From the sequence record NC_019717.1: a stretch of 45,366 bases of DNA. One strand, given 5' to 3'. A program made the translations under genes and the position numbers. The notes beneath the pieces are model-generated. The model worked only from the letters and a program-made list of their open reading frames with translations. It searched no databases and was not told where the DNA came from. The DNA is from Enterobacteria phage HK225. Below, one piece after another: positions 25,854-36,595 of this stretch. The stretch's first letter is position 1, and each line of letters opens with the position of its first letter.

Positions 25854-28800
25854 TTATGCCTGAGTACGCAGCGCTTCAAGGCGGCGCAGGTCGAAGTCGT
25901 TCAGTTCGTCGGTGTAGTCAGCAGTGATTGGCGCTGGCCATTCACCTGTGTCGAATCCGGTTGCGATATTGCGCATCGCTTTGCGGTACTCGAGCATACC
26001 CAGCTCCAGTAGTTCAGCGGATGCCTCGATGATGGCGATCCAGTGGTAGTTCTCGTCTTTGTTGACGAAAATCCAGAAGAACTGATCCAGCGCTGCGGTT
26101 TCGCAGTACATAGCCGCGCTCAGGTGATAATCACGTTCAATAATTTCCCGGTGTAGCCTGGCGCGCAGGCTTTCCTGCTTAACATTCCACATGCTGATGG
26201 TTTTCAGGTCAGCACCGATACGCACGCCGTCTAGGTCGATCTCAAGGTCAGGGCGCACACGAACTTCCAGTCCCGTCTCCTCGTCAAAGCCAAAGTAGCT
26301 CACCTCAACGGCGCGGCTCGGGTGGGTTAGCAGCATGCCTGCGGTCGGGTGCGAGAGCAGTGCTGACTGAATTGCCTGCGCGGTGGCAAGTTGCTGGTGG
26401 GTAACCAGCACTTTCCCTTCCGGGTTGTTGCGCCACGCATCGAGCAGCTCGTCGGCGAACACTGCATCTGGTTTGACTGCCTTCACGGCCTGAATCAGAT
26501 CGGCCTTCGTGCCAGAGACTTTCAGCGGTTGCAGCTTCTGAGCTTCCTGCGCGACCAGGTCAGGATTGATAATCGCAAGTTGTTCGAGTAGTGCGTCGCG
26601 GCTGCCGCTGGTTTTAATCTGCGCTGGCAGGGTGGCGTTGTACTCTTTGATGCACGCCTTCATTGCTGTTGCTGTCTTCTTCTGATCTGCATCGATACGT
26701 TGGAATTCAGCTGGCAGCGCCATATAGTTCTGCGCCGTTTCATCCAGGCTAGCGCCCAGCGGCACCAGCGCTGGCAGGGTGGCGTTGTATTCATCCAGCA
26801 AAGCTTTGATATCGTCTGCGCTCAGTTGCGCTGGCAGGCTGGCGTTGTACTCATCAATAAACGCGCGGATCGTTGCCGTGGTGGTAAATGCACCTTCCGG
26901 AATTACGGGTTCAACGCTAAATTCTTCATCGAGCTGTTCTGGCTGCAACGCCAGCGCATGTACCAGGTTTCCCATGTCCAGCACTGAGGAGCGCTCTTTG
27001 ACGATGGTTTTCTCAACGTGGCGCGCATTGAAGTACATCAGCGAAACGCGCGCATCTTTTACCTGGGTGGAACTGATGCCGTTGGCAGCGTGGTAAACCT
27101 CGTTCGGCAGACCTTCATAGCGCCCAGGCTCGAAGTAATCGGGGTAAAAAACAGCTGGTTCGTCAGATTGCGCTTCTGGCTCGGTTTGTGCTGCAACTGG
27201 TTCGGTTTGGCTTACAGAATCGCTATTTTTGGCGACAGAATCCGTATTCTGGTTTACATCGTCCTTCTGGCTGGTATCTGACTCTTCACCAGACTCCAGA
27301 CTGCTTTCGCCTGGCTGTACTTCATCACCAACATTTTTTTCATCACTGACAGTTTCTTGAACCTGCACATTGCTGGTGGTTTCCGTAGCCTGTTTCGTGC
27401 CATGAGTTGCTGAGTTCTGCAGTAAAGCCGTAACGTCGAATATTCCGTTGCCGACATTTTTAACCAGTTCTTGTTCGACTTTCTGCGGTTGTGCTGCCGC
27501 TTCCTCTGCGCGGCGGCGTGCTCCTTCTTCACGCACGCGTTGCAGGTTCTCTTCGTGAGTGCAGAAGGATTTGCGCGGAGACTCCTTACCTTCAGGTTGG
27601 GGAATTTCCTGTGCTGCGGGTTCAGCCTCATGCAACGGCAATAACTCGACCGCGGAATTGAACGCGGCTGTCATGGTCTGGTTAACAAATTCCAGGTGAG
27701 CGACAGGAGTTAAATGAATATTTTCCGGTGCGATACGTACCAGGTTAAAAATAGCCGTGCGGTTAACACCCAGAACGCCTGGCTGATTGCGCAGGATGTT
27801 GCTCCATGATTTCCATGGTTCTTCTTTTTTGGTCACGATTTCTTTAGCGCGACGAAGAATGCTGCCCGGGATCTCGAAGTGGTTGAAGTCCATAGGCAGA
27901 AGGGCACACGCAATCTCTAAATCGAGAGTGTCCAGTGTGTGGTGTGCGTCAGGTCCACGGTCAGTGACGTAACCGCCGTCGGCATTAGTGCCGGAATCAG
28001 TACGCTGCACACTACTGATGCGATTACCGGCGGCCCATTCGCGAACGAGGATACCGCGGTCGATGTGATCTGTAGCGAACCACAATTTCAAAAACTGGAT
28101 TAAGGTTGCGAGTTCAGGGATTTTTCCATCGACAGGGAAGACTTTCTTAACGGCATTCACGACTTTATGAATATCGTGCTCAATGGCTTTTTTGAATGCT
28201 TCCACATTCTCAGCTGCCAGCAGCAGGTTCTGGACGTACGCGTCATCGGTGTCCATCTCAAGGCGGACAATCTCATTTTTCTGCCCTGCGTCGATGTGAT
28301 AGAGATATTCACCATCACCGATGAACTGAGCCAGTACGCGCTGGCGGAATGGCAGGGTGGCAACAACGATCAGGTTCGGTTGCTGTGTCTGCTGGGATTG
28401 CTCTTCGGTATCGACTTCACCATCAACGACGCCACCTTCTGCCCGGCCGTTCTCGTCGGTCTGGATACCGTCCTCAACAGTGAGATCTTGACCCGTTGTA
28501 ACGTCAGCAGCGTTGCTGGTTTCAGTTTTGAGCAACTGCAACTTACCACTGCGCCAGTCTTCTACCAGTTGATTGCGGTCACCGGCATCGGTGTTCACCC
28601 AGTCAGACATGAATGCAGCGATCAATCTTGGTTCGTGCTCTTCGTCTGGTGTGAAAATGTCCTTAACCGCCCGAATCATTTTCCACTCAGCATTCAGGCT
28701 GAGTTTGGCGGTCGCGGGCACATCGTTCCTTGCCACAAGCAGGCTATGGAGATATGTATTGCCTTCATCCAGTGACATTTCGCTGGCAGCCAACTGCTGC

Positions 28801-29243
28801 TCTTTAGTGACGTGGGTTTGGTATTTATCGTTCATCAGATGGACGGCAAAGCGGACCGCTGGAGTACGGTTTTCAACCGGGACAATTTCGGACGCAGTCG
28901 CATCTTCAACGATTACGGTCGGAGTAGGTGTGTAGGGGGCGTCAACGGAACCAGTAGACACACCAGCGGCTTTTGGCAGCCAGGTGCGCCCATCGTCCTG
29001 AAGCTCGTAGCGATCACACCAGGTAAAATCAACTTCACCTTCTTTCGGCAGGCCGTCGACAACTGGGAAATCAGTGCGAATCGGTTTGGCGTAGTCCTTA
29101 CCCCGACCTGTTTCGATACCTGCATCTTCCAGCGCAACATCCAGCATCAGATTGGCGCGAGCCTCGGTTTTAGCAGTGAACCAGACCACTGCATCTTGCT
29201 TTCCGGATTTCTGAGTGGCTTTAACCACATTAAAGAATTCCAT
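25854..29243 (-). CDS. recE: RecE-like exonuclease VIII with long N-terminal extension
   Basis: 1129-aa ORF with GAGGA SD, directly upstream of recT; acidic low-complexity middle; C-terminal region consistent with a RecE-type nuclease domain; internal triplicated EYNATLPA module. Confidence 0.7.
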   Translation of the reverse strand: MEFFNVVKATQKSGKQDAVVWFTAKTEARANLMLDVALEDAGIETGRGKDYAKPIRTDFPVVDGLPKEGEVDFTWCDRYELQDDGRTWLPKAAGVSTGSVDAPYTPTPTVIVEDATASEIVPVENRTPAVRFAVHLMNDKYQTHVTKEQQLAASEMSLDEGNTYLHSLLVARNDVPATAKLSLNAEWKMIRAVKDIFTPDEEHEPRLIAAFMSDWVNTDAGDRNQLVEDWRSGKLQLLKTETSNAADVTTGQDLTVEDGIQTDENGRAEGGVVDGEVDTEEQSQQTQQPNLIVVATLPFRQRVLAQFIGDGEYLYHIDAGQKNEIVRLEMDTDDAYVQNLLLAAENVEAFKKAIEHDIHKVVNAVKKVFPVDGKIPELATLIQFLKLWFATDHIDRGILVREWAAGNRISSVQRTDSGTNADGGYVTDRGPDAHHTLDTLDLEIACALLPMDFNHFEIPGSILRRAKEIVTKKEEPWKSWSNILRNQPGVLGVNRTAIFNLVRIAPENIHLTPVAHLEFVNQTMTAAFNSAVELLPLHEAEPAAQEIPQPEGKESPRKSFCTHEENLQRVREEGARRRAEEAAAQPQKVEQELVKNVGNGIFDVTALLQNSATHGTKQATETTSNVQVQETVSDEKNVGDEVQPGESSLESGEESDTSQKDDVNQNTDSVAKNSDSVSQTEPVAAQTEPEAQSDEPAVFYPDYFEPGRYEGLPNEVYHAANGISSTQVKDARVSLMYFNARHVEKTIVKERSSVLDMGNLVHALALQPEQLDEEFSVEPVIPEGAFTTTATIRAFIDEYNASLPAQLSADDIKALLDEYNATLPALVPLGASLDETAQNYMALPAEFQRIDADQKKTATAMKACIKEYNATLPAQIKTSGSRDALLEQLAIINPDLVAQEAQKLQPLKVSGTKADLIQAVKAVKPDAVFADELLDAWRNNPEGKVLVTHQQLATAQAIQSALLSHPTAGMLLTHPSRAVEVSYFGFDEETGLEVRVRPDLEIDLDGVRIGADLKTISMWNVKQESLRARLHREIIERDYHLSAAMYCETAALDQFFWIFVNKDENYHWIAIIEASAELLELGMLEYRKAMRNIATGFDTGEWPAPITADYTDELNDFDLRRLEALRTQA
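26621..26852 (-). repeat. three copies of a 25-bp repeat inside recE
   Basis: + strand GCGCTGGCAGG(G/C)TGGCGTTGTA(C/T)TC at 26621, 26768 and 26828. Confidence 0.85.
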
Positions 29244-30314: not shown

Positions 30315-30635
30315 TCAGAAATAGTCTTTATGGTCGTGCATCGCTCGCTGGAGGATCACCTTTGCATCTTCAAAGCTGGCAGATTCAAAAGCCTCTCTTA
30401 TGGCCTTAGCCAGGCAAGTCGCATCGCTTTCATAGTCATCAGCTCTGCTTTCCCAGTTTGATGCCTCTTCTTCAGCCTCATAAAGGCGATCGCCATACTC
30501 GCACTCGAGTTCCTGGCGCACTTCATCACGAAGCTTCTCCTTGATGATTTCGGAGGCTTCTTCAATCGGCATTGTTTCCAGAATCGTCTCTGGCTGATGA
30601 GTGCCGTATTTCAGTGAGATATCAGTAGCAAACAT
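30315..30635 (-). CDS. hypothetical acidic protein
   Basis: ATG at 30635 preceded by GGAGG; track ORF extends upstream without SD; acidic C-terminal half. Confidence 0.45.
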   Translation of the reverse strand: MFATDISLKYGTHQPETILETMPIEEASEIIKEKLRDEVRQELECEYGDRLYEAEEEASNWESRADDYESDATCLAKAIREAFESASFEDAKVILQRAMHDHKDYF

Positions 30636-30644
30636 GCAACCTCC

Positions 30645-30670
30645 AAAAAAATGCCCGCGCGCTGGCGGGC
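30645..30670 (-). terminator. intrinsic terminator inside the leftward early operon
   Basis: on the minus strand GCCCGC-cagcgc-GCGGGC followed by AUUUUUUU, immediately upstream of the next SD. Confidence 0.6.
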
Positions 30671-30782
30671 CAAGAAGACTTTTCCAATCCAACCAGAACA
30701 GGATCATCGTCTCCTGTGTGGTTGAGATGGCAGTATTACCATCACCAAGCATCGGCACCCGGTGCTTGAGGCTGGCTCTGTC

Positions 30783-30799
30783 GTTACCCGCTGATGCGG
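30783..30799 (-). repeat. intercistronic hairpin element GTTACCCGCTGATGCGG, copy 1
   Basis: 17-bp exact direct repeat of the element at 31005; small stem-loop CCGC-tgat-GCGG right after a gene stop. Confidence 0.8.
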
Positions 30800-30988
30800 T
30801 TATGTCTCATCGACGCATGGAAGTGATTTCCAGTCGATATCGTTTTTTGCCGAATCCCACAGGCCTTTCTTTTTGTACTTTTCTGAGCATGGAATGCAGA
30901 TGTTGTAAGGCCTGCCAACCATGTTTACAGATATTCTCTGCATCTCTTCAGATGCCAGAAAGTACCCACAGAATTGACACTTGTGCAT
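30800..30988 (-). CDS. hypothetical zinc-finger protein
   Basis: 62-aa ORF with GGAGAG SD; CxxC...CxxC. Confidence 0.45.
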   Translation of the reverse strand: MHKCQFCGYFLASEEMQRISVNMVGRPYNICIPCSEKYKKKGLWDSAKNDIDWKSLPCVDET

Positions 30989-31004
30989 ACGTACTCTCCA
31001 CTTA

Positions 31005-31021
31005 GTTACCCGCTGATGCGG
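31005..31021 (-). repeat. intercistronic hairpin element GTTACCCGCTGATGCGG, copy 2
   Basis: identical 17-mer 222 bp from copy 1. Confidence 0.8.
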
Positions 31022-31045
31022 GAGAAATGCTTTATCTATCAGCTT

Positions 31046-31258
31046 CTACAACTCATCACGAATCTGTGAGAGTGTGCTGATCGCCTGGTAATGACCGCGA
31101 CGCTGCTCTTCTGTTTTGAACGCACGCATATCGTCTTTTATCGATGCGATTGCCTTATTCAGAACTTCCACTTGCGCTTCTTTAATCGCCTGTTTGCGTG
31201 GCTTCTGACGCTTCTTAGGAAGGTCTCTTAAACACGCCGGAATGTATGTCTGAGTCAT
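31046..31258 (-). CDS. hypothetical basic protein, first gene of the leftward early operon (N position)
   Basis: 70-aa ORF with AAGAGGA SD; Lys/Arg-rich N-terminal third. Confidence 0.45.
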   Translation of the reverse strand: MTQTYIPACLRDLPKKRQKPRKQAIKEAQVEVLNKAIASIKDDMRAFKTEEQRRGHYQAISTLSQIRDEL

Positions 31259-31562
31259 AAAAAATCCTCTTGTGATTCAGCCCAGCCCACTCAACTTCGA
31301 ATGGACTGGAATAAATCTGTTTGCGCTTCGCACCTCTCATCCTGCCAGTGTTGCCCGTTCTCACGCCGTTATCGCTCTCGCGCGGGGATACTCTCTCACC
31401 GACCGGATCGCACCCGGTGATACAGCACGTTTTCGTGTAGGGGTCTTAACAGGTCATTGACGCTGTAAATCTGCATGTTGTTAAAAAGCAGGCGACTTAC
31501 TGTCCGCCGCTGGCTAACTTCGCTCAGCTGTCGATGTTTCGTTTCGATGGGATAATTAAACA

Positions 31563-31645
31563 TCATGTGGATTTATAGGTCAACACCTTGTGGATTTATT
31601 TTGTTGATTTAATCGTTTTTTGTTGATTTTTATGTTGATTTATTT
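31563..31645. promoter_or_regulatory. OL-like operator/promoter region with five direct 9-bp repeats
   Basis: ATGTGGATT / TTGT(G/T)GATT at about 31565, 31588, 31601, 31620 and 31632; same motif as in the cI-cro intergenic region. Confidence 0.55.
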
Positions 31646-31692
31646 TTTGGTGGCATAAGTGATATGCTGCAAAAAACATCAGGAGGTGGCTA

Positions 31693-31898
31693 TGGAACGT
31701 GATGAACTTGCAGATGACCGGATGGCCTTCATGGCTGGAGAGGTTGGGTGTGTGGTGTTCGAACTGATTTACAACGGGATTGAGATCAACAAAGACAACA
31801 TTGTGGGATTTCTGGAAGGGAAGCGTAAAGCCGTCGGGAACGTGATCCACAAGGGGGTGCTACGGGATGCGGCTGAGATGGTACGGAAGGGCAAATAA
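31693..31898 (+). CDS. hypothetical protein transcribed rightward from the OL region
   Basis: ATG at 31693 preceded by AGGAGG (track ORF starts 31659); 68 aa; ends at a bidirectional terminator. Confidence 0.45.
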
Positions 31899-31929
31899 AA
31901 ACCCGGCGCGGTGGCCGGGTTTATTTATT
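31897..31929. terminator. bidirectional intrinsic terminator
   Basis: AAAA-ACCCGGC-gcggtg-GCCGGGT-TTATTTATT between convergent genes. Confidence 0.7.
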
Positions 31930-32575
31930 GCTTAGGAGCTTGTTGTGATGACGATTGGTTAGTTGGAGCGCTCGTTAATGGTTGCTGTGTCGGTACCTGT
32001 ATTATAATTGGAGCCGGGCTGGTTACTGATGGTGACTTGTCATTGCCGGAGATAATCCAACTTGAGGCTAACATCACGCCAGACAGAATCACAGTAACTA
32101 AAGTCAAGCCAACGGCCATCGCCCACTGAGTCGTTGTAAGTCCCGTTTTCAAACCGCCGATTTCACCTTTAATTTCAGCAATACCTCTCTCAATAGAAGA
32201 AAATTGCTGAGTATAATAGGTTTTAAAGTCAGCTGATTCGCGACGCATTTCCGCAGCAATAGACTCTACCTCTGATTTGTTTTGTGAAAGCTTTGCGTCA
32301 AGTTCTTCTCTGGACATTCCGCTCACGCTTACCTCCAGGGTATCACTCTTCATCGCTACATCTTCCTTACTTGGGCGCAAACCCGTTTCGTCCATGGCGT
32401 ATGAAACTCTATTTGATACCTTAGCATCAATACCAATACTTTGGTACTGAGATGGATCCCCATAAGGAGAAACGGTTGTCGCTGCTAGGGTTGCACTAAC
32501 TATAATACTTGGAAGAACTGATGATGTTGTTCCTGAGGTAGGTTGAACTGAAGAAACTGGCTTCAGTCTTTCCAT
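31925..32575 (-). CDS. hypothetical membrane protein (S/T-rich N-terminus, coiled-coil, one TM, P/S/Q-rich C-tail)
   Basis: 216-aa ORF; hydrophobic AMAVGLTLVTVILSGVMLASSWII; AT-rich; start overlaps the upstream ORF by 13 nt. Confidence 0.5.
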   Translation of the reverse strand: MERLKPVSSVQPTSGTTSSVLPSIIVSATLAATTVSPYGDPSQYQSIGIDAKVSNRVSYAMDETGLRPSKEDVAMKSDTLEVSVSGMSREELDAKLSQNKSEVESIAAEMRRESADFKTYYTQQFSSIERGIAEIKGEIGGLKTGLTTTQWAMAVGLTLVTVILSGVMLASSWIISGNDKSPSVTSPAPIIIQVPTQQPLTSAPTNQSSSQQAPKQ

Positions 32576-32829
32576 AGCCCATTATCCCTGAGAGCTACCT
32601 GTAATGATTTTACTAATGCAACAGCTTGATCCGGGCTCATTGAGACTGACATGTTAGGGGTCAACTCAACTTTTACTTGGAAGCTATTCTTTCCTTGCTC
32701 ATCAGACTGCATGTGATGCTCAAATTCATGGCGGTAAAAAGTAATGATTGTTTCAGCACGATCAGGCGTAATAAGAACTGATGTGGCGGTCATGTGCTGA
32801 GGTATGATTTTAATAGTGTTATCTGACAT
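32563..32829 (-). CDS. hypothetical protein (88 aa from the SD-preceded ATG)
   Basis: track ORF 32563..32970; only the ATG at 32829 has a good SD (AAGGA); alternative starts at 32865 or 32871. Confidence 0.4.
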   Translation of the reverse strand: MSDNTIKIIPQHMTATSVLITPDRAETIITFYRHEFEHHMQSDEQGKNSFQVKVELTPNMSVSMSPDQAVALVKSLQVALRDNGLWKD

Positions 32830-33024
32830 AAGTATCCTTTTTGTTTCCTTAGTATTTTTTTGCATTGACATCAGAAATAGCGAATCCACAAGAGTATGAG
32901 TAAAGCTAATCAGTTTAGTGATACGGTGACTATTAAAGTGGTAAACCACATCAAAGCTCGCAGAGTGCATACCAGGCTGTCACACATGACAAAGTAACGA
33001 GGATGCCTGATCTCATAGCGCTCA

Positions 33025-33177
33025 AAGAGACATGCCGATAATGGCATTAACCACGCATGACGCCATAAACACGCCGCCAACGATGAAGCTGGCTTGGTTC
33101 TTCCTGGTAGCGCCAAGAGTCAACAGAACCACTGAAAGGGCAAAAAAAGGTATCGCGATTATGCTGAACGTGTTCAT
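33025..33177 (-). CDS. small hydrophobic peptide (51 aa, two predicted TM), not in ORF track
   Basis: hand-translated MNTFSIIAIPFFALSVVLLTLGATRKNQASFIVGGVFMASCVVNAIIGMSL; GAGG SD 5 nt upstream; immediately downstream of cI. Confidence 0.35.
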
Positions 33178-33281
33178 GTTGACCTCAACTTATTTCGATT
33201 CTCCATCACCCTTAATCCGCCGCCCCATGTGTTTGTTGTGATCCGTTGCTGGCCTTAACCAAACGTCTCTTCAGGCCACCG

Positions 33282-34001
33282 CTACAGCAATACCGAGTAC
33301 CAGAAGAGGCGGCCGATTATCTCAACATCATCAATGTCAGCTTCTTCATCAGGGTAGGCCTCATTGTTGTAGCTGCGGATAATTAGCTTTCCGCCTGGCT
33401 TACGATACAGCTGTTTAATGCGCTTGAGTTGACCATTCCCGCCATCTGTCTGACCAATGGCATACAGTTTCCCATCAACTATGCGTTTGTTGTTCGTATC
33501 GACGGCTACAGTCGTACCATCCGGTATCACAGGTTCCATGCTGTCGCCAGTAGCAGGGAAACACAGGATGCCAGACCCATCTGTGTTAGCTCCAACGCGG
33601 CGGAGGGTTGCCTTTGAGAACCTGAGCTTAAAACCATTGTGATCTTCGCTGTGTACGCGTCCATCGCCACACGCAAATTCAATATCCTTAAGAAATGGCA
33701 CTTCAACCTCATCAACAGGAAGCGGGGTGTCTTTATCCCATGCATCAACAACTCCCCACTCAGACTCTGGCGGGATGTTGCTCTCCAGATCCTTCTTTGG
33801 AGAACCCTCTCCATTTAATAAGCAGTCAAGAGAATAACCGAATTTTTCAGATATTTGTTGCGCCGCCTCACGACTTAACGCGTCTCTTTTTATCCAGTTG
33901 TTGACGGTCTGTGGGCTAGTCGACAAAGCCTCAGCCAAATCCCGCTGCTTCAAGCCTTCCCTTGCCAGTAAAAATTTAATTCTTTCAGAAATGCTACTCA
34001 T
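33282..34001 (-). CDS. cI: CI-like prophage repressor (HTH plus S24 LexA-like peptidase)
   Basis: ATG at 34001 after GGAGGG; N-terminal HTH (LKQRDLAEALSTSPQTVNNW); C-terminal GDSM serine motif and conserved Lys. Confidence 0.85.
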   Translation of the reverse strand: MSSISERIKFLLAREGLKQRDLAEALSTSPQTVNNWIKRDALSREAAQQISEKFGYSLDCLLNGEGSPKKDLESNIPPESEWGVVDAWDKDTPLPVDEVEVPFLKDIEFACGDGRVHSEDHNGFKLRFSKATLRRVGANTDGSGILCFPATGDSMEPVIPDGTTVAVDTNNKRIVDGKLYAIGQTDGGNGQLKRIKQLYRKPGGKLIIRSYNNEAYPDEEADIDDVEIIGRLFWYSVLL

Positions 34002-34029
34002 AAAACCCTCCGCTCCATGCATGGTAAAC

Positions 34030-34105
34030 AACATGTGGATTTTTTCCATCACCATAATGTTGATTTAATCCACATCATGAATTAACATGGTGTTGATTAC
34101 ACATG
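34030..34105. promoter_or_regulatory. OR-like operator region between cI and cro
   Basis: 19-bp near-palindrome ATGTTGATTTAATCCACAT at 34057-34075 plus half-sites ATGTGGATT (34033) and TGTTGATTA (34091). Confidence 0.6.
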
Positions 34106-34118
34106 AGCGGAGCAAAAC

Positions 34119-34340
34119 ATGATCAACAAAGAATCCAACGCAAGCACCCCGCTTGAGAAAGCCATTAATGCAGTGGGCGGCTCTCAAAAGGTGCTTGCTG
34201 AAAAGGTCGGCGTAACTCCACAGGCCATCAATATGCTTAAAAAGCGAGGTGGCAGCCTTCCAGTAACAAAAATGCGTAAGTACGAAGAAGTGACGGGGCT
34301 TCCTCGCGAAGTTCTATATCCAGGTATCTTTGCCGCCTAA
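34119..34340 (+). CDS. cro: Cro-like HTH regulator
   Basis: 73-aa ORF divergent from cI; HTH GGSQKVLAEKVGVTPQAINMLKK. Confidence 0.7.
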   Translation: MINKESNASTPLEKAINAVGGSQKVLAEKVGVTPQAINMLKKRGGSLPVTKMRKYEEVTGLPREVLYPGIFAA

Positions 34341-34369
34341 CGGCGGCCCTAACCACGAAAGGGAAAGCA

Positions 34370-34915
34370 ATGCATTCACTTGCGTATCAACAAGGTAACA
34401 AATTTTCGCCAACGGCGATGATTTACCAGAATCGCCGGGAGCCTGATTCCACGGCGTTAAACATCGATGGGATCCGCGCAGCCGTTCGCGCCTGGGCAGC
34501 TGATTGCCGAAGCCGTGAATTTGTCGCCGCGCTGATCGTGGAAGAGTGGCGGGCGTCCGGCGGAACCGGTCTGGATATCCCGACTGACTCGCACCGCCAG
34601 ATGCAGAAAGTGTTTCGATGGATTGATGGCGATACCGAATACGCCGCCAACAACATTCGCCAGCTGGCCCCGGCAATCATGTCGGTCCTGCCGCTGGAGT
34701 ACCGAAACCGTCTGGCGCCGCAGAACGACACGATGTCGCTGATCGCCTCTGCGATGAAAGAGTGTGCCGAGGCTAAACAGGCCGTGCTGCTGGACGCTCC
34801 AGAGCATCAGAAGCTCAAAGAGGTAAGCGAGGGTATAGCGTCGCTGTTCCGCCTCATGCCGGAGCAGGTAGGACCGCTGATGACGATGGTTACATCGATG
34901 CTGGGGGTTATATGA
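34370..34915 (+). CDS. CII-like regulator (YdaT-like)
   Basis: 181-aa ORF in the cII position; resemblance to YdaT-family proteins is recollection only. Confidence 0.4.
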   Translation: MHSLAYQQGNKFSPTAMIYQNRREPDSTALNIDGIRAAVRAWAADCRSREFVAALIVEEWRASGGTGLDIPTDSHRQMQKVFRWIDGDTEYAANNIRQLAPAIMSVLPLEYRNRLAPQNDTMSLIASAMKECAEAKQAVLLDAPEHQKLKEVSEGIASLFRLMPEQVGPLMTMVTSMLGVI

Positions 34916-35000
34916 GAGGCACAAGAAAAGAAAAAGCCCTTGAAGCGGTAACTTCAAAGGCCCTTATCACACTGTGTTACGGCAAGTAACGGGAGTAAGT

Positions 35001-35909
35001 ATGTCAAACACCGCTGAAATAATCAATTTCCCAAATAAAACCGAACAACCGGGAGGTCGTATGGCCGACCTGTCGAACGGGTATACCAAGGTCGCTAACG
35101 AGATCCAACAGCTTAAGCCTCGCCTGAGACTGTCAGGCCGAGAATGGCAATGTTTTGAGGCGGTGATCTGGCTTACCTACGGCTGGAACAAGAAACAGGA
35201 CCGCGTGACAAATACGGTTATTGCCGAGCTTACGGGCCTGAGCGATACGCATGTATCGGACGCGCTTAAGTCTCTCGCAGAACGCAAAATCATCTTTTCA
35301 CAGAAGCAGGGCATGATGAAAATCGTCGGTGTAAACACTGACCTTTCAGCATGGATTTTAGACAAACCGGAAACGGGAAGAAAATTCCCGAAAACGGGAA
35401 AATCCTTCCCGAAATCAGGAATAACCTTCCCGAAAACGGTAGACACCCAATACAAGAACAAGAACAGTATTAAAAGATCTTCGTCCGAGAATTCTGACGA
35501 ATCCTCTGACGCACGTCTGAAGAAATTTTTATTAACTCATCCTGAAGCTGCGGTCTACACACCATCCGGTGCGAAGTGGGGCTCTGCTGAAGACCTCGAG
35601 ACAGCTAAGTGGATTTCCTCCAGGGTGAAGCTGATTAACCCAACCTGCAAAGCCCCGGACATGACCTCCTGGTCTAACACTGTTCGCCTGATGCGCCAGA
35701 TAGACAACCGGTCGCACCAGGACATCTGCGCGCTGTATGACTGGGCTAGCAAACACCACTTCTGGCAGACCAACATCCTGAGTCCCGAAAGCCTGCGTAA
35801 GCAGTGGGACAAGCTGACAATGCAGCGTAACGCCGGAGGTGAGCAGCGCGCTGTCAAGCCAGATCTGGACTTCAACAACACTGACTGGGCCTATGGGGTG
35901 ATCCGATGA
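35001..35909 (+). CDS. O: replication initiation protein O
   Basis: ATG at 35001 after GGGAG; N-terminal replisome-organiser domain (LSGREWQCFEAVIWLTYGW); ori iterons embedded mid-gene as in lambda. Confidence 0.85.
   Translation: MSNTAEIINFPNKTEQPGGRMADLSNGYTKVANEIQQLKPRLRLSGREWQCFEAVIWLTYGWNKKQDRVTNTVIAELTGLSDTHVSDALKSLAERKIIFSQKQGMMKIVGVNTDLSAWILDKPETGRKFPKTGKSFPKSGITFPKTVDTQYKNKNSIKRSSSENSDESSDARLKKFLLTHPEAAVYTPSGAKWGSAEDLETAKWISSRVKLINPTCKAPDMTSWSNTVRLMRQIDNRSHQDICALYDWASKHHFWQTNILSPESLRKQWDKLTMQRNAGGEQRAVKPDLDFNNTDWAYGVIR
35365..35485. other. origin of replication: four iterons plus AT-rich region inside O
   Basis: TTCCCGAAAACGGGAA-like palindromic repeats at about 35367, 35385, 35406 and 35428, followed by AT-rich sequence. 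Confidence 0.75.
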
Positions 35910-36595
35910 AATCTCTTGCAGAGCAGATGCGTAACCACGACCGCGAGCAGATGAGCCGCATGGCCCATAACCTGCCAGAGCAGTACCAGGAGTGCGCGCC
36001 GGTCGAGCAGGTGGCGCAGGTATTCAACAAGCTGTTCAACGAGCTGCGCGCCGCGTTCCCGGCCAGCATGGCGAACTTCCGCACCCAGGAAGACCTGAAC
36101 GAATTCCGCCGTCAGTGGCTGCTGGCGTTTCAGGAGAACGGGATCCACACCATGGCTCAGGTCGATGCCGGCATGCGCATTGCCCGCCGCCAGGAGCGCC
36201 CATTCCTGCCGTCGCCGGGCCAGTTCGTCGCCTGGTGCAAGCAGAGCGGCGGCGCGCTGGGCGTCAACGTTGACCAGGTGATCGCCGAATACTGGGACTG
36301 GCGTAACCGCTCGTTCGAATTCATCTCCAGCGAGCAATTTCCATGGTCGCAGCCGGTCATGTACCACATTTGCGTAGAATTGCGCCACCGCAGCACCGAG
36401 CGCCAGTTAACGCATGGTGAACTGGCACGCGAGGCAGGCGATCTGCTGGACATGTGGGAAAGGCGCGTCACCGAGGGTAAGCCAGTTCCGCCGGTACGCC
36501 GGGCTATTGCCGCACCAGCTGCCGAGCAAGGGCCGACGCCGATCCAGCTGCTGCTGGCCAAGTACAACCGCAACAAGTCGAACGGGATGGTGTGA
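35906..36595 (+). CDS. P: replication protein P (helicase loader)
   Basis: 229-aa ORF overlapping the O stop; long matches to recalled lambda P (RPFLPSPGQFVAWC). Confidence 0.85.
   Translation: MKSLAEQMRNHDREQMSRMAHNLPEQYQECAPVEQVAQVFNKLFNELRAAFPASMANFRTQEDLNEFRRQWLLAFQENGIHTMAQVDAGMRIARRQERPFLPSPGQFVAWCKQSGGALGVNVDQVIAEYWDWRNRSFEFISSEQFPWSQPVMYHICVELRHRSTERQLTHGELAREAGDLLDMWERRVTEGKPVPPVRRAIAAPAAEQGPTPIQLLLAKYNRNKSNGMV

Follow-up and report, generated by a model that had tools for sequence, protein, structure and literature searches.

The 45,366-bp sequence of Enterobacteria phage HK225 (NC_019717.1; hereafter the window) contains two clusters of a short motif, ATGTKGATT (K being G or T), one between the divergent genes cI and cro and the other in an array to the left of cI. 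Sequence comparison indicates that this motif is very probably the consensus half-site of a phi80-type CI repressor, and that the two clusters are the right (OR) and left (OL) operators of a lambdoid immunity region. The sites fall into two classes, namely five pseudo-palindromic operators (OR1, OR2, OR3, OL1 and OL2) whose strong halves are co-oriented, and four half-sites without a partner, these being repeats 3, 4 and 5 of the OL array and an orphan in OR. The motif, both operator regions and the assignment to CI are already present in the GenBank records of phi80 of 1988 and 2012; their identification here is a correct rediscovery and adds nothing new on the phi80 switch itself. For specialists in phage switches, the points of interest are that the OLs of several lambdoid immunity types keep partner-less half-sites at fixed positions, and that OL is flanked by a conserved small gene, unannotated in phi80, with a predicted promoter.

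Exact matches to TGTKGATTT on both strands of the window numbered seven, against 0.95 expected, and none of 100 shuffled sequences reached seven. Five are located on the plus strand in OL, at 31566, 31589, 31602, 31621 and 31633 (spacings of 23, 13, 19 and 12 bp), and the remaining two in OR, at 34034 and 34058; none was found outside 31566–31641 and 34034–34066. Mononucleotide shuffling of the 104-bp OL cassette yielded a mean of 0.04 motif copies, and 0 of 20,000 shuffles reached five. These exact-match counts bear out the five irregularly spaced copies of one orientation that a preliminary description of this DNA had placed to the left of cI. In the cI–cro intergenic region, ATGTKGATT is exact at 34033–34041 (+), 34057–34065 (+) and 34067–34075 (−), and it occurs with one mismatch at 34090–34098 (+), 34080–34088 (−) and 34026–34034 (−). 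An independent repeat search recovered the OL repeats together with a perfect 9-nt inverted repeat at 34033–41/34067–75.

The flanking genes had rightly been called cI and cro, their products being a repressor with Pfam helix-turn-helix (HTH) and S24 domains and an HTH Cro. CI, whose true start is MSSISERIK and not the upstream ATG of the list of open reading frames (ORFs), is 87% identical overall to phi80 CI; 59 of residues 1–60 are identical, the recognition helix QTVNNWIKRD is the same, and the C-terminal domain is more diverged than the N-terminal one. The Cro-like protein is identical to phi80 gp30 at 72 of 73 residues. Given these identities in the first 60 residues of CI and in Cro, phi80 immunity is expected. 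The layout is that of a lambdoid CI/Cro switch, with a 117-bp intergenic region containing three dyads between the divergent cI and cro genes, and a second operator set over PL, upstream of nutL, at an OL2–OR2 distance of 2.47 kb. Both the DNA-binding domain and the sequence and position of the operators are of the phi80 immunity (imm80) type. On this evidence the window would represent a lambdoid prophage with phi80 immunity. The motif is probably also recognised by the Cro-like gp30.

Gap-free alignment to phi80 showed 99% identity in the cI–cro intergenic region, with two base differences in its 117 bp (3 in the 151 positions aligned), and about 97% in 31340–31680, which comprises OL and its flanks. 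Five base differences lie between PL and repeat 5, the phi80 array has the same five repeats at the same spacing, and the promoters and nutL occupy the same positions as in the window. Laboratory strains with phi80dlacZ also have this OL. The phi80 record JX871397 annotates six CI operators as 'protein_bind' features together with pL, pR and pRM, all of which map through the alignment onto the motif sites. X13065, the record of 1988, has an 'O-L region' that stretches between a point 6 bp left of OL1 and the final base of repeat 5, and an 'O-R region' whose end is the final base of OR1. This identity to annotated CI operators upholds the earlier proposal that the motif is an operator element shared by OR and OL.

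The five operators have the form weak left half–N3–TGTKGATT, the inverted left halves of OR1, OR2, OR3, OL1 and OL2 showing 1, 2, 3, 2 and 2 mismatches, respectively; the probability of two or fewer mismatches in a random 8-mer is 0.0066. Scored with a position weight matrix for the half-site, the five dyads reached 20–24 bits versus 14.9 for the next best 19-mer in 45 kb, a gap that is partly circular, the matrix having been built from them. Repeats 3, 4 and 5 and the OR orphan have random-like partner halves, with mismatches at 6–7 of 8 positions. Because the strong halves are co-oriented in every operator, the array looks like a series of direct repeats, and asymmetric lambdoid operators ordinarily look this way. 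The description of OL as direct repeats is right for repeats 3–5, which have no inverted partner, and wrong for repeats 1 and 2, which are the right halves of the pseudo-palindromic OL1 and OL2. The contrast that had been drawn with the inverted-repeat OL of lambda was overstated, as the consensus halves of lambda OL, TATCACCGC, CAACACCGC and TATCACCGC, also share one orientation, 24 and 20 bp apart.

Within OR, the best dyad of the window is OR1 (24.2 bits), the left half of which includes the PR −10, TAACAT, at 34083–34088. The right half of OR2 (20.8 bits) includes the PR −35, TTGATT, at 34060–34065, and OR3 (20.2 bits) overlaps the PRM −10 (34021–34026, minus strand). In relatives the centres of OR2 and OR3 vary and their halves are kept, and certain left halves are perfect there; in one relative (L067) OR3 is a perfect palindrome, AGTAAACA-TTA-TGTTTACT. 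The 19-bp near-palindrome with additional half-sites noted previously between cI and cro, ATGTTGATT-T-AATCCACAT, is present at 34057–34075, but it is not an operator: it is made up of OR2's strong half and the adjoining orphan half-site, the two being 'everted' within the PR spacer, and the phi80 annotation has no operator there. As a separate protein site common to OR and OL, this everted palindrome (TGTTGATT-T-AATC...) was ruled out, the right arm in OL, AATCGTTT, being unconserved in relatives. The orphan is perfect in the window and weaker (AATCCACGC) in phi80, and of 21 distinct OR sequences in the alignment, 17 by our count retain its AATCCAC. Separately, the perfect 9-nt inverted repeat formed by ATGTGGATT (34033–34041) and AATCCACAT (34067–34075) flanks OR2 almost symmetrically (centre at 34054 versus 34056 for OR2); in phi80 its right arm is weaker.

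Within OL, OL1 and OL2 form a tandem 23-nt unit. The left end of OL1 (21.1 bits) is the PL −10 (TTTAAT, minus strand, 31555–31560) and that of OL2 the PL −35 (TTGACC, minus strand, 31578–31583), each matching the corresponding element of phi80 pL, so that PL reads TTGACC-17-TTTAAT. Repeat 3 is not annotated as an operator in phi80, yet it lies inside the 'O-L region' of X13065. The coordinates of these sites and of the neighbouring features are collected in Table 1.

Table 1. Sites and genes in the window's immunity region, with phi80 counterparts (coordinates of phi80 operators as annotated)
Feature	Position	Strand	Sequence and description	phi80 counterpart
nutL	31426–31490	−	boxB hairpin CACGTTTTCGTG at 31426–31437; boxA at 31482–31490; downstream of PL	coordinates taken from phi80 by gap-free alignment
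OL1	31555–31573		ATTAAACA-TCA-TGTGGATT; right half is repeat 1	operator 33207–33225
OL2	31578–31596		GGTCAACA-CCT-TGTGGATT; right half is repeat 2	operator 33230–33248
Repeat 3	31601–31609	+	TTGTTGATT; half-site; inverted left half with 7/8 mismatches	
Repeat 4	31620–31628	+	TTGTTGATT; half-site; partner unconserved in the phi80 group	
Third phi80 OL operator	31621–31640		20 bp; repeats 4 and 5, repeat 4 being the first half	operator 33273–33292
Repeat 5	31632–31640	+	ATGTTGATT; half-site; overlaps the A/T-rich element	
A/T-rich element	31637–31649		GATTTATTTTTTG; immunity-independent; candidate distal UP-like element of PL	
Predicted extended −10 promoter	31660–31668	+	TGaTATGCT; 20 bp right of the A/T element/repeat 5 stretch; for the small gene	
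Small gene	31692–31898	+	68 aa; phrog_3975 (E=5e-35); strong Shine-Dalgarno	
Bidirectional terminator	31899–31922		after the small gene	
cI	33282–34001	−	Pfam Phage_CI_repr/HTH_3 (N-terminal) and Peptidase_S24 (C-terminal)	
OR3	34023–34041		GGTAAACA-ACA-TGTGGATT	operator 35323–35341
pRM −35	34044–49			position from phi80 annotation
OR2	34047–34065		CATCACCA-TAA-TGTTGATT	operator 35347–35365
Orphan inverted half-site	34067–34075	−	AATCCACAT; exact motif in the PR spacer; partner half with 6/8 mismatches	
OR1	34080–34098		AATTAACA-TGG-TGTTGATT; 19-bp pseudo-dyad	identical; JX871397 35380–35398
cro-like gene	34119–34340	+	Pfam HTH_3/YdaS; YdaS-type HTH	gene 30

Conservation of the array was analyzed in relatives sharing the immunity type. 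Eighty loci with relatives of CI emerged from a protein-guided IMG/VR scan, and those with the same recognition helix (homoimmune loci) keep the OL array, at a cI–OL distance ranging from about 1 to 2.8 kb. Expressed as the majority fraction over 29 distinct homoimmune OL sequences, conservation of the cores of repeats 1–5 was 1.00, 0.98, 0.89, 0.97 and 0.96, and that of the spacers 0.59–0.86. OL1 was unchanged in 29 of 29 sequences, and the halves of OL2 scored 0.94 and 0.98 around a 3-bp centre at 0.59. Since the cores of repeats 4 and 5 score high and the 11 bp to the left of repeat 4 only 0.70, the phi80 group conserves these repeats without a left partner. In two loci (L069/L070) the position of repeat 4 is occupied by a full dyad, AATACACA-AGT-TGATGATT. 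Two others (L043/L045) have at that position a perfect inverted repeat of 11 nt whose arms are separated by 10 nt, AAATACACATC-N10-GATGTGTATTT; compared with a normal operator, its half-sites are set one helical turn wider apart.

Heteroimmune relatives were informative as to what the extra half-sites follow. In L044/56/60, in L046/49/55 and in their relatives, the flanks are nearly base-for-base those of the window, with CAGCTGTCGATGTTTCGTTTCGATG on the nutL side and GTGnTATGCTGCAAAAAACATCA, a Shine-Dalgarno and the small gene on the right side, and the operator cassette between them is different; their CI proteins are similar in the C-terminal domain and differ in the N-terminal one. The L044-type, with the recognition helix SQAAIQKIETG, has four same-strand copies of the half-site GTTGT, spaced 24, 12 and 19 bp (2 of 20,000 shuffles reach this count). 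The L046-type, with the recognition helix SEPGIWKWLNAS, has five same-strand copies of GGTTA, spaced 24, 19, 9 and 14 bp, and the phi80-type cassette of the window five of TGTKGATT, spaced 23, 13, 19 and 12 bp (0 of 20,000 shuffles for either). The reverse complement of the half-site is found only once in each of the three cassettes, in the left half of the second operator. As the extra half-sites change with the DNA-binding domain of CI while keeping nearly constant positions, the comparison of these sequences argues that they are repressor-specific sites rather than host-factor sites or chance occurrences.

The survey was extended with an anchor on the nutL side, which distinguished 32 cassette types among the matches listed; at least four same-strand half-sites were present in 8 of these 32, including the phi80 type when TGTKG is taken as one motif. 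This 5-mer survey is crude and under-counts degenerate half-sites (the phi80 motif is split into TGTTG and TGTGG), and its counts are lower bounds. The picture is clear: between flanks that stay fixed, immunity modules are exchanged, and the N-terminal domain of CI is exchanged with them. A 19-mer between nutL and PL, TCGATGTTTCGTTTCGATG (window 31520–31549), is common to at least 120 IMG/VR stretches and about 32 operator cassettes.

As to binding, stoichiometry and effect, we infer the following arrangement. Since the operators overlap the promoter hexamers (−35 and −10), CI bound there should block PR and PL, and with the latter leftward early transcription; dimers on OR1–3, OL1 and OL2 would do so sterically. 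The centre of OR2 lies at about −42 from the PRM start, as placed from the annotated −10, so that CI on OR2 would be positioned to act on PRM in a lambda-like manner. Each of repeats 3–5, upstream of PL, could receive one subunit of a further dimer held by protein–protein cooperativity, which would extend the occupancy of OL. We consider it somewhat probable that repeats 3–5 are auxiliary, low-affinity repressor contacts of this cooperativity-dependent kind. Several points weigh against the arrangement as a whole. Repeats 3–5 have no dyad partner, which a CI-type dimer normally needs, and repeat 3 is lost in the homoimmune loci L042 and L043. Conservation scores are inflated, as most homoimmune loci are closely related, and the conservation of repeat 5 has in part another cause, since this repeat coincides with an immunity-independent element. 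The motif definitions for the heteroimmune types were drawn partly from the OL regions themselves, and the tie between the sites and CI binding experiments runs through GenBank feature tables.

A broader proposal, which we regard as doubtful, is that partner-less half-sites are a conserved feature of a group of lambdoid OLs and that lambda-type repressors bind them in a geometry other than the dyad. These half-sites are located about 12–13 bp and 19 bp past the strong half of a full operator; on this proposal, either a single HTH of an extra dimer would dock one helical turn from a full operator, or a dimer would bridge two direct half-sites. If true, this would be a mode of recognition and cooperativity undescribed for lambda-type HTH–S24 repressors, and it might couple repression of PL to a UP-like element or to the promoter of the divergent small gene.

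Alternatively, only OL1, OL2 and OR1–3 would be functional, and repeats 3–5 and the OR orphan would be relics of tandem duplication that persist through kinship and A/T-richness. The tandem 23-nt unit of OL1/OL2 is an evident duplication and repeats 3–5 form a 12-nt family, TTTTGTTGATTT; the random-like partner halves fit with this origin, as do the loss of repeat 3 in the two loci named above and its degeneration in four more (L035, L036, L041 and L069), and repeat 5 is only three substitutions away from an immunity-independent element also found in lambda. Against this stand the high conservation of repeats 4 and 5 relative to the adjacent 11 bp and the annotation of both repeats together as a CI operator in the phi80 record. 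A T to G change in repeat 3 of L065 remains inside the degeneracy of the motif. The heteroimmune cassettes, too, have extra half-sites, of their own sequence and at nearly identical positions, and relics would not account for these. We therefore consider this alternative unlikely and retain auxiliary repressor contacts as the preferred reading of repeats 3–5.

Another explanation, compatible with auxiliary contacts, takes repeats 4–5 as the operator of a divergent promoter (31660–31668) that would transcribe the phrog_3975 gene rightward. Repeat 5 would then lie at about −42 to −35, and CI would either repress this promoter or, in lysogens, have an activating effect like that of lambda CI on PRM. 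A module of TGnTAYGCT (TGaTATGCT in the window), the leader AAAAAACATCA, a Shine-Dalgarno and an ATG is conserved beside OL in the phi80 group and in five other immunity types, thus beside six different cassettes. The small gene is conserved at the protein level: phrog_3975 homologues of 65–80 aa occupy this place in phi80, where the 69-aa homologue (locus L001, 1857–2066) is unannotated in both GenBank records, and in 38 of the 43 further homoimmune loci that were compared. In L036 and L041 a different small gene, phrog_3946, occupies the slot, and in E. coli TC24 the PGAP annotation places there a small hypothetical protein, encoded rightward. In nearly all homoimmune loci a constant 30 bp separates repeat 5 from the −10, and homoimmune loci without the gene (L043/45 and L069/70) have a rearranged site 4. 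On the other side, repeat 5 is kept in the loci that lack the gene, and the last half-site lies 41 and 39 bp from the −10 in the heteroimmune types, which leaves no common geometry. The promoter is predicted only, and a consensus promoter scan did not call it; the same scan called none of PL, PR and PRM and was too strict to weigh. TTGATT of repeats 3–5 was rejected as a −35 for rightward promoters, there being no −10 at 16–18 bp; TATGCT is 22 bp away from the copy in repeat 5, too far for a −35. Given the difference in distance between types, control of the rightward promoter by CI is possible but poorly supported, and repeats 4–5 are improbable as its operator. A search of window 30500–36000 against Rfam gave no matches.

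The A/T-rich stretch at the end of the array deserves separate consideration. ATTTATTTT, or a close variant of it, lies 88–90 nt from the nutL-side anchor in 15 of the 32 OL cassette types among the matches listed, and lambda has this element too (NC_001416, 35669–35683), 18 bp beyond OL3; window 31625–53 and lambda 35660–88 are identical at 23 of 29 positions. PMC3708714, citing Giladi 1998, reports that a UP element lies proximal to OL in lambda, and the ATTTATTTT element may be this distal UP element. The lambda bases aligned to the core of repeat 5, TATGAATT, match it at 5 of 8 positions, and in all homoimmune loci the A/T element is converted toward the motif, as TGTKKATT, and this speaks for selection of a half-site at repeat 5. 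This overlap, the reported UP element and the likeness of the repeats to host sites (the reverse complement AAATCCACA matches the DnaA box TTATCCACA at 7 of 9 positions, and AATCAA is the core of the integration host factor, IHF, site) could suggest that the repeats are sites for IHF, DnaA or the RNA polymerase alpha subunit, but this is highly improbable: the half-site changes with the N-terminal domain of CI between identical flanks, which a host site would not do and which rules out the DnaA-box/IHF reading, each OR operator has the motif as its strong half, the TTR that the IHF consensus requires 4 nt downstream is absent from all the repeats, and immunity independence, with a plausible role as a host-factor or UP element, is confined to the A/T tail that follows repeat 5.

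Beyond the operators, the window differs from phi80 in several places. The match to phi80 ends to the left of 31341, where an N-like gene is found in the window. Between OL and cI, phi80 gene 40A is replaced by two ORFs on the minus strand (31925–32575 and 32563–32970) that are like HK97 gp48/gp49, with 99.6% identity; with these HK97-like genes in place of 40A, the prophage is a phi80/HK97/Rac-like mosaic. In E. coli TC24 the matching locus has a RecE-family exonuclease in its left arm, to which a 1129-aa ORF of the window (25854–29243) is likened by position only. At the position of cII (34370–34915) lies a gene for a 181-aa YdaT-family protein, the homologue of which differs in length between the phi80 records, with 132 aa in X13065 and a 543-bp CDS in JX871397.

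The region was finally compared with known switches. The C repressor of phage P2 exemplifies repressors that bind direct repeats, located about one or two helical turns apart upstream of the early promoter. The window is not of this direct-repeat-only type: repeats 1 and 2 and the three OR sites have inverted left halves at a 3-bp offset, five of the nine sites are pseudo-palindromic, and the repressor is a lambda-type HTH–S24 protein. With the PaaR2/YdaS switch of CP-933P (PMC8630535) the window shares a lambdoid immunity region, a YdaS-type Cro and a YdaT-type CII, and that report notes a balance of direct and inverted repeats; PaaR2, however, has no S24 domain, its motif is GTTTAGTAA, and its operators are likened to those of the window by description only. 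Lambda is alike in layout, with divergent cI and cro, three operators over PR/PRM, an OL over PL and upstream of nutL, asymmetric operators, adjacent operators 23–24 bp apart and the same A/T-rich element just past OL. It differs in its recognition sequence, in the length of the operator (17 bp, versus 19 bp in the window) and in the OR2–OR1 spacing, which is 33 bp in the window. Finally, whereas lambda OL3 is a pseudo-dyad, the window has three partner-less half-sites beyond OL2.

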